In this document: in pieces, positions 2,968 to 56,903 of the stretch | Numbering within the stretch: the stretch's first letter is position 1 | Layout of the letters: the number at the start of each line of letters is the position of its first letter | Assembly (NCBI GenBank): GCA_964231325.1 | Contig: CAXRIF010000002.1 | Location: 5,908 to 69,907 of the forward strand | Direction: 5' to 3' | DNA from: Rickettsiales bacterium | Lineage (GTDB): Bacteria > Pseudomonadota > Alphaproteobacteria > Rickettsiales > SXRF01 | Length of the DNA: 64,000 bases | Position numbers and translations under genes: made by a program | Notes under the pieces: generated by a model | What the model saw: only the letters and a program-made list of their open reading frames with translations | The model's database searches: none | What the model was told of the DNA's origin: nothing

Positions 2968-3085
2968 CAGCTTACTAGACCGGGGCAAATACGCAGCTTT
3001 TTGAGAACCGGAGCGCAGCGTACGTTTAAGTACGTGAGCACCGGAAGCACAGAAAAGCAAGTAAGTTGTCCGGTATGGTAAGCTG
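2968..3085 (+). repeat. RPE-like palindromic element, copy A
   Basis: Arms CAGCTTACTAGACCGG / CCGGTATGGTAAGCTG; core GCAGCGTAC-N6-GTACGTGAGCACCGGAAGC. Confidence 0.85.
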
Positions 3086-3086
3086 C

Positions 3087-3542
3087 CTACTCTTCGTCGG
3101 CCGTTTGAACGATCACCGGCTTTTTCTTCATTTCTTCTTCCATGCTTGGGAAAGCGGTAGAGGTGATGAAAGCGGGAAGCCCTTCCCCATCATTATCGCC
3201 AGAATCATCTCCATTTTCATTAGCGCTGCCATTGGCTGCTTTCTTTTCTGATGTATCATCAGACTTTGCGCTTTTAGGTTTCTGGTTATTATTTTGCTGG
3301 CGCGGGTTATTCGCCGCCTCTTCTGCTAGCATACGATAGCAATGTTCCGCATGTTGGTAGTAATTTTCTGCCAGAACACGGTCTCCTGCGGCTAGTGCAT
3401 CACGCGCCTGCGCCAGGTATTTTTCGCGGGCTGCACCATAATTACGGCGCGGGCGATTTCCATTTTGTCCACCACGGCCACGGCGTTGATTGCTATATCC
3501 ACCACCAGAAGATTTACGTCTCATGCTATTTCCTTTGTTCAT
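3087..3542 (-). CDS. DUF4167-family protein
   Basis: EKYLAQARDALAAGDRVLAENYYQHAEH motif; conserved position downstream of prmC in Alphaproteobacteria. Confidence 0.9.
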   Translation of the reverse strand: MNKGNSMRRKSSGGGYSNQRRGRGGQNGNRPRRNYGAAREKYLAQARDALAAGDRVLAENYYQHAEHCYRMLAEEAANNPRQQNNNQKPKSAKSDDTSEKKAANGSANENGDDSGDNDGEGLPAFITSTAFPSMEEEMKKKPVIVQTADEE

Positions 3543-3550
3543 TCCAATTT

Positions 3551-4420
3551 CTATCTCGTTATCATCACACAGCGGATAATCCCACCGAGGTCTTTTTTCA
3601 TGGCCATCACATTCAGGCCTTGTTCATGTGCCAACTGTGCAAGCGCATCTTGCTGGCCCATACCAATCTCAAAAAACGCCACACCATCTTCTGCCAATAG
3701 TTCTGGCAGCGATTTCATAATCTGGCGATAACAATCCAGCCCATCTTTTCCACCATCAAGCGCTAGTTTTGGCTCATGCAGAGCAACTTCAGGCGCCAGT
3801 GATTCGATGGATGCGCTAGGGATATAAGGCGGGTTAGCGACAATAATGTCGAATGTCCCTGCTACTTTTTCACACCAGTTGGAGGCTAAAAAAGCTATCC
3901 GCGACTGCAGGCCTAAACGTATGGTGTTTTCCTTGGCTACTGCGAGTGCCGCTTCGCTTATATCAACGCCAATAGCTGTAGCATTGGAGATGGCTTTTAG
4001 CAAGGAAAGACACAAACAACCTGTACCGACCCCAAGATCCAGTATTTTATAGGTTTTTTGGCTATCTGTGCAATATTCTAACACGGCATCTATCAATGTT
4101 TCGCTGTCGGGGCGTGGGTCTAGCGTGTCATTCGTCACTTTGAAATCCATGCCATAAAACTCGCGTTTGCCGATCAAATGCGAAATAGGATGGTGTTTTA
4201 AGCGTAAATCAATCAACGAAAAATATTCGTGTCGCTGTGCTTCGCTCATCGGTTCATCCATCGCCAGCAACAATTCTTCACGACTCACATGTAGTACATG
4301 TTGTAGCAATATACGTGCATCCAGCGAACCGGAAGCAAACTTCGCATCCTGCAACTTGATCACCGCATCACGCAATGTATCCTGGATAGTATGTGTGGTT
4401 ATCTTACGTAGCGCGACCAT
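3551..4420 (-). CDS. prmC: Release factor glutamine methyltransferase PrmC/HemK
   Basis: PRPDSE, LDLGVGTG, NPPY motifs; downstream of prfA. Confidence 0.97.
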   Translation of the reverse strand: MVALRKITTHTIQDTLRDAVIKLQDAKFASGSLDARILLQHVLHVSREELLLAMDEPMSEAQRHEYFSLIDLRLKHHPISHLIGKREFYGMDFKVTNDTLDPRPDSETLIDAVLEYCTDSQKTYKILDLGVGTGCLCLSLLKAISNATAIGVDISEAALAVAKENTIRLGLQSRIAFLASNWCEKVAGTFDIIVANPPYIPSASIESLAPEVALHEPKLALDGGKDGLDCYRQIMKSLPELLAEDGVAFFEIGMGQQDALAQLAHEQGLNVMAMKKDLGGIIRCVMITR

Positions 4421-5490
4421 TAGTTCAGCTCCGATAAGCGTTTTGCTTCATCATCGGCGATCAGCGCATCGACAAATTCATCGAGATTCCCCGCCATCAC
4501 CTCATCAATATTATATGCCGTCAGGTTAATACGATGATCCGACACACGCCCTTGTGGGAAGTTATAAGTACGGATGCGTTCCGAGCGATCACCCGAGCCC
4601 ACCTGCCCCTTACGCGAAGCAGCGCGTTCGCTATCCACCTTTTCGCGTTCCAGATCATAAAGCCGCGCACGCAATACTTTCATCGCCTTTGCCTTGTTCT
4701 TGTGTTGTGATTTTTCATCCTGCTGCTGCACGGTAAGCCCAGTTGGCACATGCACAATACGCACCGCGGAATCCGTCGTGTTCACCGATTGGCCGCCTGG
4801 GCCACTCGCGCGGAACACATCAATGCGCAAATCTTTTTCTTCAATTTTAATATCCACCTCTTCCGCTTCGGGAAGCACGGCAACGGTTGCCGCAGAGGTG
4901 TGCACGCGCCCTTGTGTCTCCGTGGCTGGCACACGTTGCACGCGATGCACGCCGGATTCAAATTTCATCTTGGCGAATACGCCTCTGCCCGTAATTTCGG
5001 CGGTGGCATCTTTATAACCGCCAATGCCAGATTCAGAGGTAGACATCACCTCAAACTTCCAACCTTGGTTAGCGGCAAAGCGTTGATACATACGAAACAG
5101 GTCGGCCGCAAACAGCGCTGCCTCATCGCCGCCCGTACCCGCGCGCACCTCAAGAATAGCGTTCTTTTCATCTGCCGCATCTTTGGGAAGCAGGGAAATC
5201 TGCACTTTCTTGGTAAGCGCTGGCAGCTTTGCTTCCAGCTCGTGAATTTCCTCTTCGCCCATCGCCTTCATCTCAGCATCACATTCAGGGTCAGCAATCA
5301 TCTGTTTCGTATCAGCGAGGGCTTTTTTCGCCTCCTGATACTCTGTGATGATTTCCACGATCGGTGAAAGATCAGAAAACTCTTTGGACATTTTGGCAAA
5401 TTCAGCACCAGACGCCGTTCCTGCCGCTAATGTATCGCTTAGTTCCTGGTGGCGGCGCGCCACCATATCAAGTTTATCTTCAAAGCTCAT
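4420..5490 (-). CDS. prfA: Peptide chain release factor 1
   Basis: GGQ motif, PAT anticodon tripeptide, [12 protein letters not shown]. Confidence 0.99.
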
Positions 5491-5499
5491 GTTGAATTT

Positions 5500-6756
5500 C
5501 TATAGTTTCTGCTGCGTTAGCCACGCGCTAAGTTCGTCGCGTTTTACCTGTTCCTGCCTGCCATCGGCAAGCACTTTCACACTCACCTCGGCATTTGCTA
5601 CTTCACTGTCACCCAGAATCAACACCGCCGAAGCGCCTGCCTTTTCTGCGCGTTTCATTTTCTTGCCCATATTGCCGCGTGTCACCAGCTCCACCACAAA
5701 CTCGCGGCGCAATTCCTGCGCAAGTTTCACTGCTTCCATTTCCTGTGCGCTATCAACCGGGATAATCACAATAGGTGATGTAACCGGTGTATCTTTCATG
5801 GTCGCCTCGGTAAGTGCCATCAAGCGCTCAATGCCAGAGGCAAAACCAATACCTGGAATATCCGGCCCACCCATGGTTTTCACCAACCCGTCATAACGCC
5901 CACCGGCAAGCACGGTACCCTGCGCACCCAGCGCGTCAGTGACGAATTCAAATACGGTGTGGTTATAATAATCCAGCCCGCGCACCAGCCGCGGGTTAAG
6001 TGTGTAGGCAATACCAAGTGCATCTAGCGAAGTTGTTACATATTCAAAAAACGCCTTGGCTTCTTCGGTGAAATAATCTGCCGCGGATGGTGCATCCGCG
6101 ATCAGTTTTTTATCGCCCTCATCTTTAGAGTCCAAAATACGCAGCGGGTTTTTTTCCAGCCGTGTTTTGCTATCATCCGACAAGGAGTTCTTATGGTCGC
6201 TAAAATAGGCAACCAACGCATTACGGTATGATACACGACTTTCAGTATCACCCAATGAATTAAGCTCCAGCCTGATGTGATCTTTCAAGCCAAGCGTAGC
6301 CAGACATTGATCTGCCATGGCGATCATTTCCACATCAGCAATCGGTTCCGCCACACCTAAACATTCTGCACCAAACTGGTGAAACTGGCGCATACGACCT
6401 TTTTGCGGACGCTCGTAGCGAAAGGCTGGCCCTGCATAATACCATTTTTGTGGCAGCTCCTGCGTCAGGCTGTTTGAAATAAGTGCGCGCACGATGCTGG
6501 CGGTAAATTCCGGGCGCAGCGTCAATGATTCGCCACCGCGATCTTCAAACGTGTAGGTTTCTTTGCTCACCACGTCCGACGTATCACCCAGCGTGCGGTG
6601 AAACACTTCGGAGAACTCAAACACCGGCGTCATGATCTCGCCATAACCATAATTACGACATGCGCGCGCCATTTCGCTTTCCACTGCACGATAGCGCGCC
6701 GCTTCTTGTGGCAACAAATCATGCGTTCCGCGTACAGGTTGGAGTTTAGGCGACAT
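5500..6756 (-). CDS. hisS: Histidyl-tRNA synthetase
   Basis: [27 protein letters not shown] motifs. Confidence 0.99.
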
Positions 6757-7978
6757 GTTTCGTATCTTCTTTCGCTGCGTAATGTGTTTTCACGTATTCT
6801 TCTACCATTGCTTTGAACTCGGCTGCAATGTTTTCACCACGCAGGGTGGTCACTTTTTTACCATCCACGAATACAGGCGCAGCTGGCTGCTCCCCTGTAC
6901 CGGGCAGGCTGATGCCGATATTGGCGTGTTTGCTTTCGCCCGGGCCATTTACGATACAACCCATCACCGCCACATTCATTTTTTCTACCCCGGCATATTC
7001 CGTTTTCCATACCGGCATCTGCGCACGCAGATAAGTTTGAATATCGTCAGCAAGCTCCTGAAACACAGTGCTGGTCGTGCGCCCGCAACCTGGGCATGCC
7101 GTCACTTGTGGGGTAAAAGCGCGCAGCCCCATACTTTGTAATATCTCCTGCGCCACCTGCACTTCCTTAGTACGGTCGCCATTGGGTTCCGGCGTCAGCG
7201 AAATACGGATCGTATCGCCAATTCCTTCCTGCAGAAGCACCGATAGTGCTGCCGTAGAAGCGACAATACCTTTACTACCCATGCCCGCTTCGGTTAACCC
7301 CAGATGCAGTGGATACTCTGATTTTCGTGCCAGCTCGCGATACACCTCAATCAAATCCTGCACACGGCTCACTTTTGCCGACAAAATAATACGTTCCTTA
7401 GCAAGCCCAATGCCTTCTGCCAGCTTAGCGCTTTCCAGCGCCGAACGTACCAGCGCTTCGCGCGCCACCGCGTCCGCCTCTTTGGGTTCCGCTCTCTTCG
7501 CATTTTCATCCATCACTCGGGCGAGCAACCCTTGATCCAGGCTTCCCCAGTTCACGCCGATGCGCACGGGCTTATCATACTTGATCGCCGCTTCAATCAT
7601 CTGTGCGAATTGTTTGTCCTGCTTTTTCCCAAAACCCACATTGCCGGGATTAATACGATATTTGCCGAGCGCTTTTGCCATATCCGGATAGTCCGTAAGC
7701 AGCGTGTGGCCGTTATAGTGAAAGTCCCCCACCAGCGGCACATCACACCCCAGCTTATCGAGCGCGGCGCGAATTTCGGGTACCGCCTTGGCGGATTCCT
7801 CATTATTTACTGTAATACGCACCACTTCCGAGCCCGCATCAGCCAGCGCTTTTACCTGTGCGACCGTAGACTCAACATCCGCCGTATCGGTATTGGTCAT
7901 GGATTGCACCATCACCGGCGCATCACCGCCCACGGCAACCGTGCCAATCACTGTCTGATATGTGTTTCGTCGCGTCAT
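6746..7978 (-). CDS. ispG: HMBPP synthase IspG (GcpE)
   Basis: [29 protein letters not shown]. Confidence 0.99.
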
Positions 7979-7984
7979 TAGTAT

Positions 7985-8563
7985 CTATTTATCTGTGGCC
8001 AGCTGCATAATCGTCTTAGGCTGGCGAGGTAGCGGTAGCAGGCCATCCTCCGGCTTGCGCATATAACAGGGCGGGTATAGCCCGCCTGAGCCTTTTAGGC
8101 AAGCAACATTGCCCTGTTTCAGCGCGGAAATGCGCATTTTTTCCTGCATACGCATCGGTGTGTCCACCACAGAGATTTCCACCGTTTCCGGCTTTAGCGC
8201 ATAGACCCAGATGCCATAGGCAATTGCTGCTGCCAGCAAACCACCAGTTACAGCGCCACCACCCACCTGTTTTTCCCTGTCGAACACTTTTGGCAAAAAG
8301 AAACTACGGCGTGCTAGCGGGCCCTCCACCTGTTCATAACGGCGGGTAATTTCCACTTTATCAAGCTGCAGAAACTGGGCATACGCCTGTAAATAGCCTT
8401 TGGCATAGGCCGAGCCAGGCAGTTCGCTGAACTTTCCTGCTTCAATTGATTTCAAGTAGCACGCACGGATATGCAGCTGTTTGGAGGCGTAATCCAGCGT
8501 GATATGCTGCCCCTCGCGGGAAGCACGCAACAAATCGCCTAGTTCTGAATAGCCTTCGTCCAT
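7985..8563 (-). CDS. RodZ-like HTH/transmembrane protein (short)
   Basis: N-terminal HTH (LRASRE...YLKSIEAG...YAKGYLQAYAQFL) plus one TM; usual rodZ position upstream of ispG. Confidence 0.75.
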   Translation of the reverse strand: MDEGYSELGDLLRASREGQHITLDYASKQLHIRACYLKSIEAGKFSELPGSAYAKGYLQAYAQFLQLDKVEITRRYEQVEGPLARRSFFLPKVFDREKQVGGGAVTGGLLAAAIAYGIWVYALKPETVEISVVDTPMRMQEKMRISALKQGNVACLKGSGGLYPPCYMRKPEDGLLPLPRQPKTIMQLATDK

Positions 8564-8573
8564 AAGACAAGCC

Positions 8574-9581
8574 CTACGCAGCTTTTTGTGCTGCCTTTAA
8601 ATGTGTTTCTGCCTGTGCGATCAGTTCATCAACGATCTCCTGACAGGTTTGGATTTTAGTAACCATGCCAACGCTTTGCCCCGCCATCAGCGAGCCGTTT
8701 TCCACATCGCCATCCACCACGGCTTTACGTAGCGCACCCGCCCAGAAATGTTCGATCTTCAGCTGCGCTTCTTTTTTGTCCAATTTACCTTCGCGGAATT
8801 CTTTAATCACCTCGTGCTGTGTGCGGGTGAAGGCGTCGGTGGCTTTATTCTCAATGGCACGCACGGGAATCACCGGAAAATCCGGATCCACCTGCACACT
8901 CGCCGTGGCATTGCGAGCTGAAGCGCGAATAAAGGCCTGCTTGAAATTATCATGCGCAATACATTCCGATGCACACACGAAACGTGTGCCGAGCTGCACA
9001 CCACTTGCACCCATTTCCAGATACGAAACCATGGCCTCACCGCGACCAATACCACCCGCGACAAATACGGGCACATCTGTGATCGCTGGCAAAATTTCTT
9101 GCGCAAGCACTGAGGTAGAAACCGGGCCAATATGCCCCCCTGCTTCCGCCCCCTCAATCACCAGCGCATCCACCCCACTTCGGATCAGTTTTTTACCAAT
9201 CACCAATGCAGGAGCAAAGCCAATTACTTTTGCACCGAATTCTTTGATCGCCTTGATATGCGTGCCTGAAGGTATACCCCCCGCCAGTACCACATGTGAT
9301 ACATTATGTTTCTTACATACCTCTATGAGGGTATCCATTTGCGGGTGCATAATAATGAGATTTACACCGAATGGTTTGTCGGTCAGCTTCTTCGTTTCAG
9401 CAATTTCATTATCCAGCAATTCCGGCGTCATAGATGAACAGGCAATCACCCCAAACATTCCGGCATTACTCATCGCTGCCACTAAGTTGCGTTCGCTTAC
9501 CCAGCTCATCGCCCCGCCCATGATGGCGTGCTCGCAGCCTAGGAAATCCGTTCCGCGTTTCCAGAGTTGTTGAAGGCTCAT
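8574..9581 (-). CDS. Nitronate monooxygenase/FabK-like flavin oxidoreductase
   Basis: GGAMSWVS, EGAEAGGH, AGGIG, QLGTRF, MAGQSVG motifs. Confidence 0.9.
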   Translation of the reverse strand: MSLQQLWKRGTDFLGCEHAIMGGAMSWVSERNLVAAMSNAGMFGVIACSSMTPELLDNEIAETKKLTDKPFGVNLIIMHPQMDTLIEVCKKHNVSHVVLAGGIPSGTHIKAIKEFGAKVIGFAPALVIGKKLIRSGVDALVIEGAEAGGHIGPVSTSVLAQEILPAITDVPVFVAGGIGRGEAMVSYLEMGASGVQLGTRFVCASECIAHDNFKQAFIRASARNATASVQVDPDFPVIPVRAIENKATDAFTRTQHEVIKEFREGKLDKKEAQLKIEHFWAGALRKAVVDGDVENGSLMAGQSVGMVTKIQTCQEIVDELIAQAETHLKAAQKAA

Positions 9582-10810
9582 TATGCTTTCTCCATCTCAA
9601 ATGCACTATGTAACGCACGGACTGCAAGTTCGGTGTATTCTTCGGCGATCAACACGCTGATCTTAATCTCCGAGGTTGAAATCACCAGAATGTTGATGCC
9701 TTTTTCATGAAGCGCTCTAAACATTTCCTGCGCCACACCGGTGTGTGAACGCATACCCACGCCGATGGCAGAAATTTTGGTTACATTCTTATCCGTGGTC
9801 AGTTCCTTATACTGCAGATGCGGGCGCGCTTTTTCCATCGCCGCGACGGTACGTTCCAAATCCGCTTTCGGAATAGTAAAGGTCATGTCGGTCACTTTGC
9901 CGATTTCGTCCACGTTCTGTACGATCATATCGACATTGATCTCGGCCTCCGCCAGCGGGGCAAAAATATCCGCTGCCACCCCCGGTTTATCAGGCACACC
10001 GGCGAGCGTGATCCGCGCATCATCGCGCGAAAAAGCAATCCCAGTTACGCGTTTTTCTTCCATTATATCCTCCTCTCGCACCAACAGCGTGCCGGGTTCA
10101 TCGGCAAAGCTGCTTAGCACTTGTACAATCACATTATGGTTCATGGCGATTTCCACCGAGCGCGTTTGCAATACTTTCGCGCCGAGCGATGCCAGCTCCA
10201 ACATTTCCTCGTATGAAATTTTTTCAAGCTTGCGTGCTTCTGAAACCACACGCGGATCAGTCGTATAGACCCCATCCACATCTGTATAAATATCACAGCG
10301 ATCTGCTTTTAGTGCAGCAGCCAGCGCCACAGCGGATGTATCGGAGCCGCCGCGCCCCAGCGTGCTGATCCGGCCATCTTCAGCAATTCCCTGAAAACCG
10401 GCAACAACCGCCACTTTTCCATCCTTCAGCGTTTCGTGTAGCAATGTCGCATCAATATCAATAATCCGCGCCTTGCCGTGTCGGTTTGTGGTTTTAATGG
10501 GAATCTGCCAGCCGCAAAATGCGCGCGCGGGAATGCCCATTTCTTGCAAAGTCAACGCCAGCAAGCCACTGGTCACCTGCTCACCAGTAGATACCACATG
10601 GTCATATTCCGCCTTAGCTTCCGGAGTAGCAAGCGGCGACACATCCTGCACATAGCCCACCAGTTGGTTCGTCACCCCGGCCATGGCCGACACATTGACC
10701 ACCACCTGGTTGCCCAGCTCGAGTTCTTTTTTCACCTTAGCGGCCACATTGCGGATGCGTTCAATATCTGCAACCGATGTGCCACCGAATTTTTGTACGA
10801 TTAAAGCCAT
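9581..10810 (-). CDS. lysC: Aspartate kinase
   Basis: KFGGTSV, GRGGSDTSA, two ACT domains. Confidence 0.98.
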   Translation of the reverse strand: MALIVQKFGGTSVADIERIRNVAAKVKKELELGNQVVVNVSAMAGVTNQLVGYVQDVSPLATPEAKAEYDHVVSTGEQVTSGLLALTLQEMGIPARAFCGWQIPIKTTNRHGKARIIDIDATLLHETLKDGKVAVVAGFQGIAEDGRISTLGRGGSDTSAVALAAALKADRCDIYTDVDGVYTTDPRVVSEARKLEKISYEEMLELASLGAKVLQTRSVEIAMNHNVIVQVLSSFADEPGTLLVREEDIMEEKRVTGIAFSRDDARITLAGVPDKPGVAADIFAPLAEAEINVDMIVQNVDEIGKVTDMTFTIPKADLERTVAAMEKARPHLQYKELTTDKNVTKISAIGVGMRSHTGVAQEMFRALHEKGINILVISTSEIKISVLIAEEYTELAVRALHSAFEMEKA

Positions 10811-10822
10811 AGGGCGGGCACT

Positions 10823-11287
10823 TTACGCAATTTTCTTTTGCATTACAAGCGCATCGGTATAGCTACCGTCTTTTTGGCGATAATAGAGCTTACGACGGCG
10901 CTGATAGGCGAATCCATAGCCCTCATAAAGGCTGATGGCGGCTTGATTTCCATCCTCCACATCCAGAAAAATGGTCTCTACGCCCAGTTTCGTCATATGT
11001 GCCAGTGACTTTTCCAGCATAGCGCGCGCTATGCCTAGTTTTCGGTGTTCGGGAAGCACCGCAATGGTAATAATATCTGCCTGCTCGAACTGCGCACGAT
11101 ACACCATCATTCCCACCGGAGTTTCACCCTTTATAACAAGAAACGCGTGCGTGCCCTCCACCCCGAAAAAGTTATTAAATTCATCTGGGTTCCAATAAGT
11201 GGGAAAGCATTGCTTGTGAATCGCCGCTAGCAATTCTGCGTCTGTTTGGTCGGCAGGTTCAATGGTAAAGTTTGATTTTGTACGCAT
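10823..11287 (-). CDS. rimI: Ribosomal protein N-acetyltransferase RimI-like GNAT
   Basis: IAVLPEHRKLGIA, FLDVEDGNQAAISLY, RRKLYY; start set at ATG 11287 because the longer ORF runs through a repeat. Confidence 0.85.
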   Translation of the reverse strand: MRTKSNFTIEPADQTDAELLAAIHKQCFPTYWNPDEFNNFFGVEGTHAFLVIKGETPVGMMVYRAQFEQADIITIAVLPEHRKLGIARAMLEKSLAHMTKLGVETIFLDVEDGNQAAISLYEGYGFAYQRRRKLYYRQKDGSYTDALVMQKKIA

Positions 11288-11290
11288 AGG

Positions 11291-11413
11291 TAATTTCGCT
11301 AGACTGAGCCGGATGAGAAGGAAATAATGCGCGCAGTGATTGAGCGTATAAACAATACGCGACATGAATGAGCACATTCTTTCCAAGCAAGACGGCCAGT
11401 ATAGTAGAAATTA
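11291..11413 (+). repeat. RPE-like palindromic element, copy B (divergent)
   Basis: Arms TAATTTCGCTAGACTGAGCCG / CGGCCAGTATAGTAGAAATTA; inner GCGTAT-N5-ATACGC hairpin; overlaps stop codon of upstream gene. Confidence 0.75.
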
Positions 11414-12436
11414 TTTTTTATACACACAGAGCCACTGCTTATGATTAGGATACACTTCCACTTCCTCAAAGCTCAGCTCGGTGAGGCCATTATTGGTGGC
11501 CAGACCTTTCAAATAAATTTCGGAGAAGCGAAACAGCCCGGCATCAGGGTCAAGCTGGAAGCCATCACCTTCCATCATTTCCGCTGTAAATACAAACAAG
11601 CCGCCTGTACGTAACCCACGCGCAATTTCCGCAAAGGTTTGTTGCAGATCCCCCATAAAACTAAACAAGCCGCAGGCAATAATCAGATCATAGGCAGTGT
11701 CAGGGGATTCGGTCAAAAACTCTCGCGCATCCCGCTTAATCAACGCGTTATACACTTTATCCGAGCCATCTTTCAGAGTGATCGCTTTTTGTAGCATGAT
11801 TTCTGAAATATCCACGCCCGTGATTTCCGCTGTGATATCTTTAACCAGCGGGCCGCATAGGCCGGTACCCACCCCAAGGTCCAGCGCAGTATAATCTACG
11901 CGACCTTTGGTCGCATGCTTCCGTATAGCCGCTGCCACCAACGTATGGCCCTGATAGTTGAATTCACCAAGTTGGCTTTCTTCATAGGTTGGGGCAATAC
12001 CTTCAAAATGGTTCAGCGCCAATGTAAGTGGCATACTCTGTGGCATTTCGTCCGGTTTAGCATTTTTCCCACGCGCAATAGCAAACATATAGGCAGCTTC
12101 TTCATAGTCAGGGCGCAGTTTTTTTGCCCTGCTAAATGCAGCAACAGCCATTTTCTTTTGCTCGTCTGCTAAGCTTACAATCCCCAGATAATACCATGCA
12201 TCGGCATTCTGGGGCTGCAACCACGTTACCGCCTTGAAGCGAAAAATCGCATCACTAAAATTACCCTGATTCAGGTGCATAAGGCCAAGGCTATAATTCT
12301 TCTTGGCTACTTCATCGGCTGTACCCAGTTTAGCAGCGATCCCAAACATGAATTTTGCAAACTGTTCGCCATATATTGCAGCATCTTGTTTAAGCGAAGT
12401 AAACCAATCGGTATTTTTTCTGTTCGGATTTTGCAT
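11411..12436 (-). CDS. TPR-repeat SAM-dependent methyltransferase (COG4976-like)
   Basis: N-terminal TPRs; LDLGVGTGLCG, GVDIS, GGLFVFTAE. Confidence 0.85.
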   Translation of the reverse strand: MQNPNRKNTDWFTSLKQDAAIYGEQFAKFMFGIAAKLGTADEVAKKNYSLGLMHLNQGNFSDAIFRFKAVTWLQPQNADAWYYLGIVSLADEQKKMAVAAFSRAKKLRPDYEEAAYMFAIARGKNAKPDEMPQSMPLTLALNHFEGIAPTYEESQLGEFNYQGHTLVAAAIRKHATKGRVDYTALDLGVGTGLCGPLVKDITAEITGVDISEIMLQKAITLKDGSDKVYNALIKRDAREFLTESPDTAYDLIIACGLFSFMGDLQQTFAEIARGLRTGGLFVFTAEMMEGDGFQLDPDAGLFRFSEIYLKGLATNNGLTELSFEEVEVYPNHKQWLCVYKK

Positions 12437-12489
12437 AAGGGGCTATAATCTCCGCACTGTTTTATTAAGCCTATAACACTCACGAAAAA

Positions 12490-13215
12490 ATGGAAACAAA
12501 AACCAGCACTATCGACCCGAAAGAAGTAGAGCAATTCTCGCGTATTGCCGATGAATGGTGGGATCCGCATGGAAAGTTCAAACCGCTGCACGACATCAAT
12601 CCCCTACGTGTGAACTACATCAAAGATAGAATCGAGCAGCATTTTGGCAAATCAGAAGGTCTTTCTTTGGTGGATATTGGCTGTGGAGGCGGGTTGATCG
12701 CTGAGCCCTTTGCCAAGGCCGGCTTTAATGTATCTGCCATTGATGCGTCAGAGAAGAACATCGCCGTTGCCAAGTTGCACGCAGAACAATCGGGCGCGGA
12801 TATTGATTATCAAAGCACATCTGCTGAAGCGCTGGTGGAAACCGGCACGCAATTTGATGTGGTGTTAGCATTAGAAATTATTGAGCATGTAGCAAGCGTA
12901 CCCGCCTTTGTGGAAGCCACTTCCCAGCTGGTAAAACCCGGTGGATTACTTGTCTATTCCACCATCAACCGTACCTTTAAATCCTATGCCTTTGCCATCA
13001 TTGGTGCGGAATATATTTTGCGCATGGTACCACGTGGCACACATGAATGGAGCAAGTTTTTGCGCCCATCTGAGATCGTTCGCGAAATGCAAAAAAACGA
13101 TATTGAACTTTCAGAAATGACCGGCATGGTGCTCAATAAACTCGCATGGAAATGGGAATTAAACCCGCGTGATCTGGATGTGAATTATCTGGTCTGTGGC
13201 AAAAAGCCTATTTAG
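12490..13215 (+). CDS. ubiG: Ubiquinone biosynthesis O-methyltransferase
   Basis: WWDPHGKFKPLHDINPLR, DIGCGGG, GTHEWSKF. Confidence 0.97.
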   Translation: METKTSTIDPKEVEQFSRIADEWWDPHGKFKPLHDINPLRVNYIKDRIEQHFGKSEGLSLVDIGCGGGLIAEPFAKAGFNVSAIDASEKNIAVAKLHAEQSGADIDYQSTSAEALVETGTQFDVVLALEIIEHVASVPAFVEATSQLVKPGGLLVYSTINRTFKSYAFAIIGAEYILRMVPRGTHEWSKFLRPSEIVREMQKNDIELSEMTGMVLNKLAWKWELNPRDLDVNYLVCGKKPI

Positions 13216-13859
13216 AGCTGTGCTTCGTGGATAAAGGTTACCAGCCCCTCACCAACCACCTGCACAGCAATAGCGGCCAACAACACACCCAACAAGCGAG
13301 CCAACACCACCTTCCCTGTAACGCCTAATAGCCGCTCAATAGGCTGCGCCAGAAGAAACACGACATAGCAGCTTGCGATAATGATAAATATGATTCCTAC
13401 CAATGACCCCATATTAATCCAATTATCATTCGCAGATGACGCTTGCACAATAGTGGCTGTAATTGCCCCTGGCCCTGCCATAAGGGGGATTGCCAACGGA
13501 AAGGCTGCAATACTTTTCAAATGATCTTGGGTAATTGCTTTTTCTGCTGTTTCAGCTTTTCTCTCTTGTCTTTTTTCAAACACCATTTCCACAGCGATAG
13601 AAAAAAGCAACAAACCACCGGCAATACGAAAGGCAGGAATCCCTACGCCAAGCGCTTCAAGTACAGCCTTTCCTCCCACTACCGATGCAGCAAGAATACA
13701 AAATGCAATGATTGAGGCACGCAACGCTGTTGCCCGCCGTTCGGCAGCTGTCAGCCCAGTCGTGATGGCAATAAAAATGGTGGCCAACCCCGGGGGATCA
13801 ATGGCCACAAACAGCGTCAGGAAAGCAGTCTTGATGAATTCAATATCTAATAGCTCCAT
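13212..13859 (-). CDS. MarC-family membrane protein
   Basis: DPPG, FRIAGG, PLAIPLMAGPGAI. Confidence 0.95.
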   Translation of the reverse strand: MELLDIEFIKTAFLTLFVAIDPPGLATIFIAITTGLTAAERRATALRASIIAFCILAASVVGGKAVLEALGVGIPAFRIAGGLLLFSIAVEMVFEKRQERKAETAEKAITQDHLKSIAAFPLAIPLMAGPGAITATIVQASSANDNWINMGSLVGIIFIIIASCYVVFLLAQPIERLLGVTGKVVLARLLGVLLAAIAVQVVGEGLVTFIHEAQL

Positions 13860-13862
13860 AGC

Positions 13863-14675
13863 CTATACCTCAAACTCGCGATCATGTTCCAGCGATGGTA
13901 ACTTTGCACGTGCCTGTTTCACCTCGTCCAGATCAATCTCAGCAGTAATAATCTCTGATTCTGTGCCAGCCTCTACCACAATCTTACCCCATGGATCAAC
14001 AATCATAGCATGGCCATAGGTTTTGCGTCCCCCTTGGTGGGTTCCGCATTGCGCCGGGGCGATCACAAAACATCCATTTTCAATCGCACGCGCACGCAGG
14101 AACACATGCCAGTGCGCTTCACCCGTTACCTGTGTAAAGGCAGCAGGTACCGCCAATATTTCAGCACCGGCTTTTGCCAATGCGCGATATAAATGCGGGA
14201 ACCGCACATCATAACACACGCTCATGCCAAGTTTTGCCCATGGTGTATCGGCCACCACAGCGCGCGCACCAGACAGATAAGTCTTGGACTCACGGTAAGA
14301 CTGCCCATCTCCAACTTCCACATCAAACAGATGGATTTTGTCGTAATGAGCAACTTCGTTGCCCTTATCATCAAATAATATAGAACGGTTCACTGTTTTG
14401 CCGCTGTCATCAATAGTCACCGCTACCGACCCAGCCAGCAGCCATACACTGTATTTGCGTGCCATCTCGGCAGATGCTTTTACTGCCGGGTGCGTATCTT
14501 GTGTATAAAGGTCACGCGCGCCGCCGGGCTGGTCGATATAAAACGCCATCTCGGGAAGTGCAATCAGTTCTGCTCCCGTTTCAGCCGCACGCGCTAGCTG
14601 CGTCTCTATGGTTGCAATATTATCCTGAATATCGCCACTACTATTAAGCTGAATACACGCAATTTTTAATTTCAT
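13863..14675 (-). CDS. Carbon-nitrogen hydrolase (Nit1/deaminated glutathione amidase-like)
   Basis: LPE, YDKIHLFD, CYDVRFP catalytic triad motifs. Confidence 0.95.
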   Translation of the reverse strand: MKLKIACIQLNSSGDIQDNIATIETQLARAAETGAELIALPEMAFYIDQPGGARDLYTQDTHPAVKASAEMARKYSVWLLAGSVAVTIDDSGKTVNRSILFDDKGNEVAHYDKIHLFDVEVGDGQSYRESKTYLSGARAVVADTPWAKLGMSVCYDVRFPHLYRALAKAGAEILAVPAAFTQVTGEAHWHVFLRARAIENGCFVIAPAQCGTHQGGRKTYGHAMIVDPWGKIVVEAGTESEIITAEIDLDEVKQARAKLPSLEHDREFEV

Positions 14676-14774
14676 ATCAATACCTTACTATATATACTGG
14701 TCATTATGCCGATTGTAGGGCATTTTATCAAACCTAAATGGTTTTTTTATAACTATCTCTGTATTATCAGTCAC

Positions 14775-15953
14775 ATGCGTTATCTATACCATATTATTCT
14801 ATTCGTTGCCGCCCTTGCCTATCCCGCCACTCACCTGTTTGCTATGGAGACGCCTCCATCTGAGATTGCACAGGCTGAAGCCCCAAATATCGCCAAGGAA
14901 GTTGCCCCTGTTTATGTAGCGCTTAAAAAGCTGCGTTCGCACTATGAAGAGATCGCCAAGGAAGGTGGCTGGCCACACTTTAATGCAACTCGGGGAAAAA
15001 TAGAACCGGGCGCACGTGACGCTCGCATTAAGACCGTTCGTGAAATCCTCTCTGTGATGGGAGACTACAGAAACGACGACGTAGTCGAACCAGATCATTA
15101 TGATGGTGTGCTCGAGCAGGCCGTCATGCAATTTCAGCTTCGACACGGGCTTGAGCAAGACGGCGTCATTGGTCGCGGCACACAAAAAGCACTCAGTGTT
15201 CCCGTACAAACCAGAATCGCACAGATTGATGCCACCTTAAAGCGCATGGAATCATTTCTGCCTACCAGCGACCGTTTTATTGTAGTCAACCTGCCGGAAT
15301 ATATGTTGCGTGCATACGAACATGGCCAGCAAGTACTCGATATGCGTGTAATTGTGGGAGACAAAAAGAACCCTACTCCACGTTTTGATAACGAAATCTC
15401 CTATGTCAGTTTCAACCCGCCATGGGGTGTGCCTACGCGTATTGCCACCGAGGAGTTGCTGCCCAAGATCATCGAAGATCCAAACTACATCGCCGATCAT
15501 GGTTATAAGGTGTATTACATGCGCGGCGAAGGCAGCCCGGAAGTAAACCCGGATGATGTGCCATGGGAGCACCTGAACACGGACGTCAAAAAATTCCCTT
15601 ATTTCTTACGTCAGCAAAATAGTGCTTCTAGTGCATTAGGAAAAATAAAATTCGGCATGACAAATTCCGATCACATCTACCTACACGACACGCCTACACG
15701 TCACCTATTCAAACGCGACTATCGTGCCCTTAGCCATGGTTGCGTGCGTGTGGAAAAACCACGCGAGCTGGCGCATCTGATTTTCAAAACCGCAGAAGAT
15801 TATGACCCTGAAACGCTCAATCAGCGTTACGATGGCGATAAAGCCAGAATCATGAAGGTAGAGCCACTACCAGTACATCTCGTCTACTGGACAGCACGCG
15901 CCGATGCGAATGGCACCGCCTATTTCAGCGAAGATATTTATACACTCGATTAA
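14775..15953 (+). CDS. L,D-transpeptidase YcbB/LdtD-like
   Basis: PG-binding domain FQLRHGLEQDGVIG; IYLHDTP...SHGCVRV; signal peptide from ATG 14775. Confidence 0.93.
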   Translation: MRYLYHIILFVAALAYPATHLFAMETPPSEIAQAEAPNIAKEVAPVYVALKKLRSHYEEIAKEGGWPHFNATRGKIEPGARDARIKTVREILSVMGDYRNDDVVEPDHYDGVLEQAVMQFQLRHGLEQDGVIGRGTQKALSVPVQTRIAQIDATLKRMESFLPTSDRFIVVNLPEYMLRAYEHGQQVLDMRVIVGDKKNPTPRFDNEISYVSFNPPWGVPTRIATEELLPKIIEDPNYIADHGYKVYYMRGEGSPEVNPDDVPWEHLNTDVKKFPYFLRQQNSASSALGKIKFGMTNSDHIYLHDTPTRHLFKRDYRALSHGCVRVEKPRELAHLIFKTAEDYDPETLNQRYDGDKARIMKVEPLPVHLVYWTARADANGTAYFSEDIYTLD

Positions 15954-16004
15954 TGCCCTACTCCAACCATCATCTCTTTATTTTTCGCTAGACCGAGGTG
16001 GTTC

Positions 16005-16123
16005 AATTTCTTTCCTTTGTGTCAAATGCGCAGCGGCTACGAGAACCGCAGCGCAGCGTAGTAATACTACGTGAGCACCGGAAGCGCAGAAGCCGCAAGT
16101 AAGTTGATCAAAGGAAAGGAATT
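16005..16123 (+). repeat. RPE-like palindromic element, copy C
   Basis: Arms AATTTCTTTCCTTTGTGTCAA / TTGATCAAAGGAAAGGAATT; core close to copy A. Confidence 0.85.
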
Positions 16124-16125
16124 AA

Positions 16126-16707
16126 TTAGCCCCAGGTACGTTCGGGGCCAGTGTCTAGATGAAGGAAATCCGCACCGCGATAAATACCCACACCACCTGC
16201 GTGCATCTCAACAGCAGCACTACGTAGTGTTTGCAGGTCAACATCCGTCAGGCGAATATCAATGGCCTGACCTTTCAGGTGGAAACTTTTTTTCGCCACA
16301 TTGCGCGAACGACGGCGCAACATGCGGTTTGTTTCTGGCGAGCGATAGCCAGAAATAATTTCGAACGTACCTTCAGAGCCCAACGTACGCTGCAACGCGA
16401 TCATTTGATCGAGCAGCTTGGGGTCCATGTTTTTTTCTTGGTTATTGCGGTGGTCGCGCAACAGATAATTTGCTCTTTCCAAACCTTCCGGCACATAGTC
16501 ACCACCTGCAAAATAGGTAATGTCCATTTTTTCACCAGTGTGTGTATGTGAAAAACGAAGTTTGCGCACTTCGTTCCACGGAAGCACTTCCTCTGCAAAT
16601 GCAGGTTTTTTAGGGAGTACTAAGGTGGCAGCAGCGCCCGCAATCCCGGTTAATACCTGGCGGCGAGAAAGCAAAAGAGGCGAGCTGGGCGAGTTATTGT
16701 CCATCAT
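16126..16707 (-). CDS. YcbK/MepK-like peptidase M15 (DUF882), Tat-exported
   Basis: SRRQVL Tat motif; SGYRSPETN, HLKGQAID, HLDTG. Confidence 0.93.
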   Translation of the reverse strand: MMDNNSPSSPLLLSRRQVLTGIAGAAATLVLPKKPAFAEEVLPWNEVRKLRFSHTHTGEKMDITYFAGGDYVPEGLERANYLLRDHRNNQEKNMDPKLLDQMIALQRTLGSEGTFEIISGYRSPETNRMLRRRSRNVAKKSFHLKGQAIDIRLTDVDLQTLRSAAVEMHAGGVGIYRGADFLHLDTGPERTWG

Positions 16708-16814
16708 TTTTCCACGTTAACATTATTATTTTTGCCTTGCAACAGTAGGTTATTGAAGCATTTTTATGTAAAATTTATATTAAACTGATGTTGCATTGAT
16801 GTCACAAGACAACA

Positions 16815-21400: not shown

Positions 21401-21411
21401 AAACCAGAAGG

Positions 21412-24564: not shown

Positions 24565-24682
24565 AAATCGCTAGGCTGTGGCGGATGCAAAGCGTTGTTA
24601 GAACTATAACGCAGCGCACATTGTAGTACGCCAGTAACAGCAGCGCAACAACGCAAGCAGGCCGACCAGCATAGTAGATTTA
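24565..24682 (+). repeat. RPE-like palindromic element, copy D (degenerate core)
   Basis: Arms AAATCGCTAGGCTG / CAGCATAGTAGATTTA; core GCAGCGCAC-N6-GTACGC; overlaps tadC stop. Confidence 0.75.
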
Positions 24683-34843: not shown

Positions 34844-34908
34844 TAAGTTTATTAGGCTGAGCCGGAAGCGCAGGAAACACAAGGAACCCGGCCAACATAA
34901 TGAATTTA
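34844..34908 (+). repeat. RPE-like element, copy E (internally deleted)
   Basis: Arms TAAGTTTATTAGGCTGAGCCGG / CCGGCCAACATAATGAATTTA; retains CCGGAAGCGCAG; overlaps NAD kinase stop. Confidence 0.7.
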
Positions 34909-35757: not shown

Positions 35758-35813
35758 AATCTTGTTAGATTGAGTCAAATCCGAAGCTTTAGCCATCCAA
35801 TAAAACAAGATTA
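35758..35813 (+). repeat. RPE-like element, copy F (internally deleted)
   Basis: Arms AATCTTGTTAGATTG / CAATAAAACAAGATT; left part matches copy G (TTAGATTGAG..AAAT.CGAAGCT); abuts stop codon. Confidence 0.6.
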
Positions 35814-48690: not shown

Positions 48691-50109
48691 ATGGCTGACG
48701 AAGAAAACACACCTCCATCGACACCGGCTCCGGTTCCTGCGCCTGCGCCAGAACCCGCTCCAGAACCGACCCCCGCACCTGCGCCTCAGCCGGTTCCTGC
48801 GCCTCAGCCAGCTCCTGCACCAGAAACACCAGAGCCTGCTCCGCCTATTGAGAACGAGTTTGAGGAAGAAGATTATTTCGATGATGAAGAAATGGAAATG
48901 GAGCGCACAGGTCCTTCCGTTGGGTCTGGTCCGGGGAAGGTTATTTTATTCGGTGTCATTCTACTCTCATTTGTCGTGTTTATGCTCTATAGCCTGTTTT
49001 CCGACAGTGCGCCGCCTGCACCACCACCAGCAACCCTTACAGCTGTAGTGCCCGAAGATAATGCCCCTCCTGTTAATGTTGCGCCTGCGCCGCCTCCGCC
49101 ACCAGTTGCAAAAACCACGTTGGCGCCTCCACCACCACCTCCACCGCCACCTCCGCCGCCTCCGCCTCCGCCTCCACCTCCGCAACCGAAGGCCAAAGCG
49201 GTAGTGCCTCCACCACCTGCTCCTCCAACCAAGATGGCAGCACCACCACCTATGCCAAATGTAAAGGCGCTCAGCCCACTTAAGAGCGACAGCACAGACA
49301 AAGCACAGCAGCAGCGCATGCGTTCAAATATGTTGATTATGAACCCCAGGCAGCTAGCTCCTCCACCTGAAGGTGGTGAGGCTCAGGCCGCATTAAACGG
49401 CATGGACAAAAACACCGCTTTTGCCAGTAATGTGCTGACTGCAACCAAAGCACAAACAGCAAAGGCAACGCGTCTCAGCAACCTATCCTCAACTATTGCT
49501 GAGGGAAAAATCATCGAAGCAGTCATAGAGACTGGTATTAACACTGATATGGCTGCCGGAGCTCGTGCCATCATTAGCCGGGATATCTACGCAGAATCAG
49601 GCCGTAATGTCATGATACCAAAGGGTTCACGTTTAATCGGTATTTATAATTCTGATATAGATCGTGGCCAAGTTAGAGTATTTATCGTCTGGAGACGTAT
49701 CATTCGACCAGACGGTGTTGATATTGAGGTAGGGTCACCTGCGATCGATTCGTTAGGTCGAGGTGGTGTGGCTGGTATCGCAGATAATAAATATGCTGAA
49801 GTGTTCAGCGCTGCTTTCCTAACCAGTGTTATTTCGATTGGTGTGGGCTTGGGTGTGGATGCTATTGAAGATACGGAATCCTCCACCACCAGAAACACCG
49901 ATGGCAGCTCAACTTCTACCGGAGGTGCCGCTTCCGCTGCAACTACAGGGGCAGTCCAAACTATCGGTGGCGCATCAAAAGGTATTGTCGATTCTCTACT
50001 GAATATCAAGCCTACCATTACCGTTGATCAGGGTACCCGTATCAATGTATTCGTACAGAGAGACTTGATATTCCCGTCTAATATGGGTGGTGGGCCGTTT
50101 GTACAATAA
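48691..50109 (+). CDS. virB10: VirB10
   Basis: Pro-rich N-terminus, TM, IPKGSRLIG, VWRRII, PTITVDQG. Confidence 0.95.
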   Translation: MADEENTPPSTPAPVPAPAPEPAPEPTPAPAPQPVPAPQPAPAPETPEPAPPIENEFEEEDYFDDEEMEMERTGPSVGSGPGKVILFGVILLSFVVFMLYSLFSDSAPPAPPPATLTAVVPEDNAPPVNVAPAPPPPPVAKTTLAPPPPPPPPPPPPPPPPPPPQPKAKAVVPPPPAPPTKMAAPPPMPNVKALSPLKSDSTDKAQQQRMRSNMLIMNPRQLAPPPEGGEAQAALNGMDKNTAFASNVLTATKAQTAKATRLSNLSSTIAEGKIIEAVIETGINTDMAAGARAIISRDIYAESGRNVMIPKGSRLIGIYNSDIDRGQVRVFIVWRRIIRPDGVDIEVGSPAIDSLGRGGVAGIADNKYAEVFSAAFLTSVISIGVGLGVDAIEDTESSTTRNTDGSSTSTGGAASAATTGAVQTIGGASKGIVDSLLNIKPTITVDQGTRINVFVQRDLIFPSNMGGGPFVQ

Positions 50110-54968: not shown

Positions 54969-55409
54969 ATGACTGCTAGAATACTCCTCGTCAATGGGCC
55001 AAACCTCAACAAGCTGGGCGAGCGTGAGCCAGAAATTTATGGCCATGAAACACTGGCTGATATTGAGGAACAATGCGCTAAAACGGCTGCTGAGCTTGGG
55101 CTTGAGCTAGATTGCGTGCAATCCAACCATGAGGGTGAGATTGTCGATTACATTCAAAACGCAGGTAAAACCCATCAAGGGCTGTTGATTAATGCGGGCG
55201 CATATACCCACACATCGGTCGCCATTATGGATGCGCTGCTTACCATCACCATCCCGGTGATCGAGGTACATATCTCCAACCCGTCACGCCGCGAAGAGTT
55301 TCGCCACACCTCCTATATCAGCAAAGCCGCCACTGGCGTCATCGCCGGGTTTGGCTCTAACAGCTACCAGTTGGCACTTTCCGCCATCGCAAAACTGCTT
55401 ACAAAATGA
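54969..55409 (+). CDS. aroQ: Type II 3-dehydroquinate dehydratase
   Basis: NGPNLNKLGEREPEIYG, QSNHEG, EVHISN. Confidence 0.97.
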   Translation: MTARILLVNGPNLNKLGEREPEIYGHETLADIEEQCAKTAAELGLELDCVQSNHEGEIVDYIQNAGKTHQGLLINAGAYTHTSVAIMDALLTITIPVIEVHISNPSRREEFRHTSYISKAATGVIAGFGSNSYQLALSAIAKLLTK

Positions 55410-56107
55410 CACCGCTATGTATCGCACATCGTGGTGCATCGGGAAACTTTCCTGAAAACACCATGATCGCTTTTCATCAGGCTATCGCACTTGGGGCTAA
55501 TGCGATCGAACTGGATGTGCATGTTTGTAAATCCGGCGAAGTAGTGGTCATACATGATGACACTCTGGAGCGCACCACCAATCTGACTGGGCGTGTGGAT
55601 GCGCACAGCTTTGTGGAGTTGAGCGCAGCAAGCGTTCCCTCACTTGCAGAAGTGCTTGATACATTTGCTACAAGCACCACCATTTTCATCGAATTAAAAT
55701 GTGAAACTGCGGCTGCGCCCGTTGCCAGTCTGGTAACGCATTATGCCGCACGTGGTGTTCCTTACGCACATATGCCGGTGATTGGATCACATCCCGACTG
55801 GTTGCTCACCGCAAAAGCAATGGACACCAACATCATTATTGGCACCACCCCGCCTCACGATCGGCCGATCGAAGAAGGGTTTTGCGAGCGTGCAAAGCAG
55901 GATGGTTTTGCTTCGGTGAATCCCTGCTTCAGCCAGCTCACCTCACAACTGGTGCAAGAGGCACATGTGCATGGGCTTGCGATTTATACATGGACACTCA
56001 ACGAGCCTTCCGACATTGAACAGGCGAAAAGACTTGGTGTGGATGGCATCATTAGCGACTATCCAGAAAGAGTACATGGAGAAGCTGACACCCCAATTGT
56101 TGCTTAA
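55406..56107 (+). CDS. Glycerophosphodiester phosphodiesterase
   Basis: IAHRGASG..PENT, IELDV, HD, GIISDYP. Confidence 0.93.
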   Translation: MTPLCIAHRGASGNFPENTMIAFHQAIALGANAIELDVHVCKSGEVVVIHDDTLERTTNLTGRVDAHSFVELSAASVPSLAEVLDTFATSTTIFIELKCETAAAPVASLVTHYAARGVPYAHMPVIGSHPDWLLTAKAMDTNIIIGTTPPHDRPIEEGFCERAKQDGFASVNPCFSQLTSQLVQEAHVHGLAIYTWTLNEPSDIEQAKRLGVDGIISDYPERVHGEADTPIVA

Positions 56108-56738
56108 CGCCTATGCGAACGGCTACTTCCCCATGGCAGAGGATCGCGATGCGGATGAGCTGCATTGGTTTCATCCCGAAGAACGCGGAGTCATTCCGCT
56201 GGATGCATTTCACATTCCAAAGAGTCTCGCCAAATTTTTAAAACATAATCCGTTTAGCTATTCGACCAACCGTGCGTTTCGTGATGTCATGCTTGGCTGC
56301 GCAGAGCGCGATAGCACCTGGATCAATGACACGATCATCGACCTCTATTGCGAGCTACACGAGATAGGACATGCGCATAGTGTAGAAGTATGGGCTAATT
56401 CGTCATTGCGAGCAAAGCGAAGCAATCCAGAACTGGATCGCCGCGTCGCTAATGCTCCTCGCGATGACGAGGTCTTAGTTGGCGGCCTTTACGGTGTATC
56501 ACTCGGCGGCGCATTTTTTGGCGAGAGCATGTTCTCGCGCACCACCAATGCCAGCAAGGCTGCGCTTGTACATCTGGTTACACTGATGAACGATGCGGGT
56601 TATGTGTTGCTCGATACACAATATGTCAACGACCACCTCAAACAATTCGGCATCATCGAAATCCCGCGTGGTGAATATTTGAAACGGCTGGAGGCAGCCC
56701 TTCAGATCAAACCACAAAACCCTTTTTCATTAGACTGA
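56076..56738 (+). CDS. aat: Leu/Phe-tRNA--protein transferase with in-frame repeat insertion
   Basis: AYANGYFPM, HSVEVW...LVGGLYG, FFGESMFS, ASKAAL; ATG 56076. Confidence 0.95.
   Translation: MEKLTPQLLLNAYANGYFPMAEDRDADELHWFHPEERGVIPLDAFHIPKSLAKFLKHNPFSYSTNRAFRDVMLGCAERDSTWINDTIIDLYCELHEIGHAHSVEVWANSSLRAKRSNPELDRRVANAPRDDEVLVGGLYGVSLGGAFFGESMFSRTTNASKAALVHLVTLMNDAGYVLLDTQYVNDHLKQFGIIEIPRGEYLKRLEAALQIKPQNPFSLD
56400..56470 (+). repeat. GTCATTGCGAG-type palindromic element inside aat
   Basis: TCGTCATTGCGAG...ATCCAG-AA-CTGGAT...CTCGCGATGACGA. Confidence 0.9.
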
Positions 56739-56779
56739 GGTGAGCAATAAAGTGTCTCTACAATTATACTGGAACTATA

Positions 56780-56903
56780 AATTCTCATTAGATTGAGCTA
56801 AATGCGAAGCTTGGTTTGAGCATCGCATCGCAAGCGTACACAAAGTACGCGCGCAGGGAAGCGCAGGACAAAGCAAGTAAGTTAGCCAATATAATGAGAA
56901 TTA
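56780..56903 (+). repeat. RPE-like palindromic element, copy G
   Basis: Arms AATTCTCATTAGATTGAGCTAA / TTAGCCAATATAATGAGAATT; core GCGTAC-N5-GTACGC..GGAAGCGCAG; overlaps yqgE stop. Confidence 0.85.

Follow-up and report, generated by a model that had tools for sequence, protein, structure and literature searches.

How does a small hairpin repeat come to lie behind the genes of a compact bacterial genome in a single orientation, and what could have placed it there? The question is raised by a 64,000-nt stretch of a Rickettsiales genome (hereafter the window; positions 5908-69907 of contig C2 of G000, a genome of 1.95 Mb in four contigs, with 47% G+C and scored 100% complete), which holds five full copies, two internally deleted copies and two left-arm remnants of an imperfect palindrome of ~120 nt (Table 1). 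The original prediction, made from the letters of the window, listed seven copies in one orientation; a member of the family was found at each of the seven places, oriented as claimed, and the two left arms are additional to these seven. The strand of the element as first read is referred to here as the + form. The full copies in the window, 118–123 nt long, have folding energies of −37 to −57 kcal/mol and reach 99–108 bits with R1, a covariance model built from 18 full copies of G000, and a search of the whole genome with nhmmer and R1 finds these 18 full copies together with about seven partial ones. The element is a repeat of the REPIN/ERIC kind that lacks a RAYT and shows strict replication polarity.

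This polarity is near-absolute. All 25 R1 matches of G000 at E < 1e-4 have the + form on the lagging-strand sequence, which is the C-rich strand. Matches on C2 and at C1:58k are all '+'; C3 holds '−' matches between 50 kb and 1.04 Mb and '+' matches past 1.05 Mb, the change coinciding with the turn of the cumulative skew. The same relationship to the skew, taken over 20 kb, is seen for 18 of the 19 copies of the related genome G001, the exception standing behind a lagging-strand operon in the gene-relative orientation, and it extends to more distant genomes, with 8/8 copies in G310 (6.3 Mb, from a different alphaproteobacterial family), where the skew is weak but of the same sign at every copy, and 7/8 in G228 (2.8 Mb, listed under the same phylum). 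Summed over these four genomes, 58 of 60 copies are replichore-concordant, so that the proposed check of orientation against gene strand and replichore returns a non-random arrangement that follows the replichore. For 31 copies of G001, G002 and nine other family genomes, skew was taken over 3-kb flanks; it is negative on the + form strand in 25, and the convergent slots within this set are concordant in eight of nine. According to the gene calls made here with our own open-reading-frame and codon-bias caller, which is reliable for stops but not for starts, only 1031 of the 1872 genes of G000 (55%) are on the leading strand, and the fact that 15 of 15 abutted genes are leading-strand genes therefore has p = 1.3e-4. 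The 580 slots (of 1869) that lie behind lagging-strand tandem genes hold no copy in G000.

The unit that obeys this polarity is a discrete imperfect palindrome of ~120–125 nt, running from a terminal AA to a terminal TT, and it is delimited in this way because complementarity falls to chance just past the last pair of the model (88%, 84% and 49%, then chance). RNAalifold, applied to a MAFFT alignment of the 18 full copies, proposes 34 pairs, with compensatory changes in 27 of them. A larger set of 74 copies (69 distinct), drawn from G000, G001, G002 and G004 and, at one copy per genome, from nine more members of the family, was aligned to R1; among the distinct copies pairing cells reach 92.8% versus 71.8% in column shuffles, and the long hairpin shows double changes at 31 of the 34 pairs. 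None of 500 shuffles attains the observed value on any measure, and no slid register comes close. Fitting to R1 favours structure in this second alignment, and the independent MAFFT/RNAalifold result agrees with it. Covariation thus bears out the suggestion that the outer stems vary between copies yet remain paired. The stronger statement that structure, and not terminal sequence, is conserved can be retained for the outermost one to three pairs and for the inner stems, which covary, but not for the subterminal positions, where ends of the TTCGCTAG type on the left and of the ATAGTAGAA type on the right are conserved across orders (consensus AA..TTCGCTAG and ATAGTAGAA..TT). The recurrent G/A mismatch noted at the outset is itself a conserved asymmetry, consisting of an internal loop with TAG opposite ATA and a bulged A, and it is accompanied by two nearly fixed G-T pairs and by purine-rich internal loops that include an invariant CAAG. 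The right outer stem contains GTAG and a bulged A, and CTAG is found at the left end. Rfam has no family at gathering score across the window, and for four copies searched at E up to 1 it returns nothing but a chance snoRNA match, the family being without an Rfam entry. An apical core related to the sarcin-ricin loop was entertained and dropped, local alignments of the 74 copies to the G000 23S gene being at shuffle level (mean 21.6; shuffles 21.2). The idea that the outer stem is an inverted copy of the target, prompted by locus L054 of G001, where one open reading frame ends inside the element and the right outer stem is coding, was likewise rejected, because the same outer-stem variants recur in several genomes and complementarity stops 2–3 nt beyond the model. 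The core may resemble Rickettsia palindromic elements, as the original prediction proposed; insertion in frame within open reading frames is a mark of those elements.

The proximity of the element to stop codons, which was central to the original prediction, is also real. In all seven copies first listed, the right end overlaps, or lies at most 2 nt from, the stop complement (TTA/CTA) of a minus-strand open reading frame. Genome-wide, inspection by eye places the stop complement on the last two T of the element or no more than 3 nt away in 15 of the 18 full copies, the three exceptions being one copy 24 nt behind a 5S rRNA gene and two lying more than 100 nt from a gene end, and of 70 distinct flank pairs, 44 have a stop-complement triplet, counted without matching to open reading frames, that begins within 0–3 nt of the end. 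The targeting of TAA as such is not shown by these data: the stops at the copies are 11 TAA, 2 TGA and 2 TAG, and 11 of 15 against a genome share of 51% amounts to no clear preference. The 262 convergent gene pairs of G000 have a median gap of 1.5 nt, with 73% of them no more than 20 nt apart, and any insert tolerated between such genes must therefore touch stop codons. Anchoring at stop codons, real though it is, would hence be mostly a consequence of genome compaction, which would leave the polarity as the true anomaly. This compaction is extreme, a quarter of the convergent pairs overlapping by at least 4 nt and leaving no room for terminators. The slots are tandem ones in at least 11 of the 18 full copies.

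The two strands of the element differ in their ability to fold. The imperfect pairs of the + form are mostly G-T, as had been remarked, with 210 G-T cells versus 45 A-C cells, or 102 versus 45 without two conserved wobble columns, and, of 69 copies, 63 fold more stably as the + form than as the complement when RNA parameters are used (mean −5.8 kcal/mol) and 65 do so with DNA parameters (mean −3.0 kcal/mol). The + form is also the more stable one in the copies of the distant genomes G228 and G310. Wobble counts and fold energies hence support the view that the strand with the better fold runs antisense to the adjoining gene. Replication-linked mutation bias of the usual kind would, we infer, give a pattern opposite to the observed asymmetry, and the asymmetry would therefore have been inherited or selected. 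The consistently greater stability of the + form could, on the other hand, account for the polarity through survival: insertion would take place either way, and the palindrome would be lost faster when the strand with the stabler hairpin is on the lagging-strand template or in the sense transcript. SbcCD cleaves hairpins on the lagging-strand template, and asymmetric-palindrome experiments reportedly made by Trinh and Sinden in 1991 speak to the same process. Losses within the palindrome are indeed common, as seen in c5 and c6, which both retain the outer stem, and in a 48-nt mini-hairpin at the site of G003 orthologous to c3. The DNA energy difference is nevertheless small (a mean of 3 of about 30 kcal/mol) for a bias of 58/60, and both discordant copies, which are intact, have an asymmetry like that of the others. 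Orientation-dependent survival, which moreover leaves unexplained why only left halves survive and why the asymmetry itself is conserved across orders, is in our judgment rather unlikely as the main cause of the polarity.

Comparison among relatives indicates that copies turn over while orientation is kept. Within a syntenic region of 30 kb, four copies are present in G000 and two in G004, G001 carries a single copy at a different site, and full copies are missing from G002 and G003; all copies of this region share one orientation. At the empty orthologous sites genes abut or overlap, and some of these sites hold GC-rich terminator-like hairpins. Between G001 and G002, with flanks 92–97% identical, about seven and six copies, respectively, are without a partner. 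One copy event can be followed at locus L061 of G002, where the copy is about 95% identical to that at the L063/L068 locus and the similarity is confined to the palindrome, from one end exactly to the other. This copy displaced a different resident, which is still present in G001; a ~30-nt remnant alongside resembles, by eye, the left arm of the displaced copy, and the new stop codon is composed of the TT of the element and one flanking base. Stacked left halves are found upstream of a complete, gene-proximal copy at five loci (C3:458.5k, c3 and c7 of the window, G004 L187 and G002 L071), and half-models in G000 give seven left-only matches and no right-only match. The G002 assembly is broken at the site of L051, a G001 copy, into the contigs L168 (C8) and L171 (C107), both of which run into look-alike copies of one short gene, suggesting a repeated or mobile gene. 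A second repeat family of short GC-rich CCCCGC...GCGGGG hairpins, often in inverted pairs, fills gene-end slots occupied in other genomes by the long element (loci L054, L073 and L164-L172 of G001/G002, and the site in these genomes that corresponds to c1).

Once in place, intact copies change little. Orthologous intact copies of G001 and G002 are 100% identical at three loci and 99.2% identical at another (one position), between flanks that are 87–95.6% identical, and two low-scoring copies diverge at about the flank rate. This comparison shows that intact copies are held unchanged by selection. Invariance of this kind, together with the invariance of the unpaired, purine-rich internal loops, would be expected if the element were a gene-end RNA or DNA structure whose function in the host sets its position and orientation, with its spread being incidental; such a structure could be a direction-dependent transcription barrier, a hairpin for RNase III or 3′-end stability, or a protein-binding site. 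The GC-rich terminator-like hairpins that relatives hold in the same slot point the same way, as do a copy behind the rRNA operon and two G004 copies that end, on the + form strand, 0–2 nt directly 5′ of tRNA-Arg genes with anticodons CCG and CCT (L179 10115-10191; L181 9890-9966), and REP and SPRITE repeats have been read as RNA elements near 3′ ends in sections of PMC3733652 and PMC3049150. However, the better-folding strand is antisense to the transcript in most slots (tandem in at least 11 of 18), and a simple scan of window positions 2500-17500 found none of its 25 terminator-like sites at an element end, the elements terminating in TT plus flank and not in a GC-rich stem with a T-rich tract. 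Gene-end function alone also fails to predict the empty slots behind lagging-strand genes in G000, and we regard a host function as a rather unlikely main explanation for the arrangement.

The original prediction suggested an HUH/RAYT-like ssDNA-hairpin element or an RNA-based one; the former would make the element a classical REP/REPIN or a derivative of IS200/IS605. A Y1 enzyme of this class would fit the long hairpin and its compensatory changes, the GTAG tetranucleotide within the right end, and a strict replication polarity of the sort known for IS200/IS605. The gene that it calls for, however, was not detected: PF01797 (Y1/RAYT/IS200) has no match in G000, G001, G002 or G004, a negative outcome for the RAYT/TnpA(Y1) gene that was to be looked for beside the copies. 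Eight of 61 relatives and two of 36 family genomes have it, without relation to the element, which 30 of the 36 carry. PF07282 (TnpB) is likewise without a match in G000. The GTAG is located at the 3′ outer end, inside the stem, and not 5′ of a short REP hairpin, and one continuous hairpin takes the place of the RAYT-type REP/REPIN architecture of two inverted short REP hairpins with 5′ GTAG/CGTC tags. Mobilization by a Y1 enzyme is thus very improbable and close to refuted. The search for enzymes covered the Y1, TnpB, IS110 and reverse transcriptase families only. A member of the same order, G054 (1.9 Mb, one contig), has an unusually heavy IS200/IS605 load, with at least 59 Y1 transposase matches, and also 19 weak R1 matches. 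The attC sites of integrons bear R''/R' cores of the form RYYYAAC and GTTRRRY and are found in cassette arrays. Such cores are absent from the consensus ends, and the copies are dispersed beside housekeeping genes; the integrase IntI was not searched for.

The explanation that we favor, tentatively and with somewhat less than even confidence, is fork-coupled, strand-specific copying by an activity other than Y1/RAYT, followed by selection and compaction. The data show a non-autonomous hairpin repeat of the REPIN/ERIC kind that is copied, as a discrete unit, to the small non-coding gap following a gene, with its orientation fixed by replication direction and the better-folding strand on the lagging-strand sequence; older copies decay from the gene-proximal side, so that left arms remain. 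In the model, spread would be coupled to the replication fork and act on one DNA strand, and the enzyme at work on the conserved asymmetric ends would be a housekeeping enzyme of the host or a protein so far unrecognised, and not a Y1/RAYT transposase. Selection against a strong hairpin in sense transcripts, combined with extreme compaction, would then leave copies only behind leading-strand genes and flush with their stops. A more specific version, in which a conserved, unrecognised single-strand DNA (or RNA) activity reads the asymmetric ends of the strand of nascent-lagging polarity, places copies flush at the 3′ ends of leading-strand genes and overwrites the gene-proximal half of the resident, is on present evidence doubtful.

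Several results weigh against fork-coupled copying. No candidate enzyme emerged from the four families searched: beyond the lack of PF01797 and PF07282 matches described above, IS110 is found in 0 of 24 family genomes, and reverse transcriptase, with one gene in G000 and none in G001 or G002, does not track the element. (The G000 gene, at C3:652454-653161 in an open frame of 451 aa, stands in an otherwise transposase-poor genome, and reverse transcriptases are also present in G003, G004 and others.) The better-folding strand corresponds to the leading-strand template, which is opposite to the arrangement known for IS200/IS605. The comparison of relatives, proposed as a source of empty sites, provides no clean one, since G001 and G002 differ by whole intergenic regions. 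No target-site duplication of the kind that would mark an IS-derived MITE is seen, and the flank composition does not support a TA or TTAA target; past the AA and TT ends, composition and complementarity are at background, and no direct repeat is apparent by eye in the flanks examined. Copies within one genome are old, with a mean pairwise identity of 54% and maxima of 76% in G000 and 88% in G002, and there is no recent burst, the single clear recent copy event being that of G002. In a contig from a strain that is 98.8% identical over window positions 5006-24999, c2 to c4 are unchanged, with no indel and neither gain nor loss. Lastly, G004 has nine concordant and six discordant copies at |skew| < 0.06, a value too weak for a test of polarity. 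Fork copying, orientation-dependent survival and host function at gene ends may also act together.

Judging from matches to genome sequences, the element is widespread in the Alphaproteobacteria. R1 matches are present in 30 of 36 genomes of the host family. Beyond it, 12 of the 24 further families of the order have them, as do 11 of 150 additional families drawn from across the class (one of these 11 being an unpublished genome, G100, which underlies this count only), all four genomes of a 6-Mb genus and one genome outside the class. A blastn search that started from a copy of the 6-Mb genus gave hits on replicons of Mesorhizobium, Sphingobium, Shinella, Phyllobacterium, Agrobacterium, Allorhizobium, Bosea, Ensifer, Novosphingobium and Rhizobium; for records of Mesorhizobium, Allorhizobium and Sphingobium, R1 confirms that the match is full-length. 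The apical 63-nt module occurs alone in three places of a record of the gammaproteobacterium Proteus mirabilis (NZ_OL790812.1; L214 398-461). That record, at 4.09 Mb, is chromosome-sized though filed as a plasmid. DNA nearly identical to the window is present in marine and algae-associated metagenome runs, and the UvrB encoded in the window has 65–71% identity to that of the closest named Alphaproteobacteria.

Table 1. Copies and remnants of the palindromic element in the window, with their model scores and adjoining genes.
Feature	Position	Strand	R1 score	Neighbors
c1, full copy	2968..3085	+	106 bits	Convergent genes either side: + gene stop 2962-2964; − gene stop complement 3087-3089
c2, full copy	11291..11413	+	108.4 bits	Within minus-strand pair, methyltransferase-like gene then rimI; stop complement 11411-11413 = last TT of element + flanking A
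Truncated left arm of older copy	15981..16004	+		Stacked upstream of c3
c3, full copy, atypical outer stem	16005..16123	+	102.4 bits	L,D-transpeptidase gene (+); mepK (−, stop complement 16126-16128)
c4, full copy	24565..24681	+	108.1 bits	Minus-strand gene without name (stop complement 24680-24682); uvrB
c5, internally deleted: outer left arm fused to right half	34844..34908	+	33.5 bits	NAD kinase gene stop (34906-34908)
c6, internally deleted: left arm + short right end	35758..35812	+	(nhmmer E = 0.045)	Stop of SpbR-family gene (35811-35813)
Truncated left arm	56723..56745	+		Upstream of c7
c7, full copy	56780..56902	+	98.9 bits	aat (+); yqgE/algH-family gene (−, stop complement 56901-56903)

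The window also contains a repeat of another kind, at 48730-49226, where tandem 12/24-nt direct repeats rich in CCN and GCN lie inside the open reading frame 48691-50109 and read as a low-complexity stretch rich in Pro, Ala and Glu.

How palindromic repeats without a RAYT (ERIC, CGTC REPs, RPE and rhizobial repeats) move and persist is a long-standing question, to which the present family brings a union of near-absolute polarity, conserved folding asymmetry, purifying selection on intact copies and decay that leaves left arms only. Should a fork-copying activity without RAYT or IS200 prove true, it would constitute a new pathway of transposition or templated insertion, one that also supplies gene-end structures to compact genomes. 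Since cultivable carriers exist in Mesorhizobium, Sphingobium and related genera, the question is testable at the bench. In annotation, the family can be used to flag gene ends and replichores in uncultured marine Alphaproteobacteria.

Literature searches for a stop-codon or replichore rule found no description of this family, and a search of paper texts for the core sequence returned unrelated primers and other sequences only. Among known systems, REPIN and REP-BIME elements are similar in being hairpins of ~100 nt with conserved ends and compensatory stem changes, and in being non-autonomous, located between convergent or co-directional genes near or overlapping stops, and persistent over long periods, according to sections of Bertels and Rainey (2011, PMC3116915) and Di Nocera et al. 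(2013, PMC3733652); these sections thus already describe REPs as covarying hairpins close to stop codons. The carriers of the element studied here differ in having no RAYT, and the element in having no short REP hairpin with a 5′ tag, and its replichore-locked orientation is not reported for REPs in the sections of PMC3116915 and PMC3733652 concerned. The IS200/IS605 single-strand transposons are a further comparison system (PMC5027513 and PMC6006769, in the parts that deal with it). These transposons are understood to share a fork-tied orientation and to need no signature of inverted repeats or duplications, and new copies of theirs would stack beside a fixed target; the present element departs from them in lacking a Y1 or TnpB gene, in forming one long palindrome in place of two subterminal hairpins, and in carrying its folded strand on the opposite template.

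The ERIC/IRU sequences of the Enterobacteriaceae offer another comparison (PMC2759123, in part). Said to be about 127 bp long, they resemble the element in size and in forming a single long imperfect palindrome. Like it, they are understood to be intergenic, to lie in transcribed regions and to have no known transposase. The element is distinguished from them by its host range, by its strict polarity and by the absence of any match in 5,426 complete E. coli genomes (blastn, 11-base words, E up to 1). The SPRITE, BOX and RUP repeats of Streptococcus pneumoniae are likewise small hairpin repeats, enriched near 3′ ends and between convergent genes; the relevant sections of Croucher et al. (2011, PMC3049150) mention their possible use as terminators and the fact that no target duplication could be defined for SPRITE. 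The element has no long U tract, and the pneumococcal repeats are on the leading strand in 60.8–63.3% of cases, mirroring coding bias (same sections of PMC3049150), compared with the 58 of 60 concordant copies seen here. The RIME, Sm-repeats and AB and C palindromes of Sinorhizobium meliloti (PMC2573895, in part) are intergenic structured repeats whose function is likewise unknown; they were compared by description only, and homologues of the element do occur on rhizobial replicons. What distinguishes the family from repeats of the REPIN, ERIC and SPRITE kind is hence the combination of a lack of RAYT, asymmetric ends conserved across orders and an orientation locked to replication.

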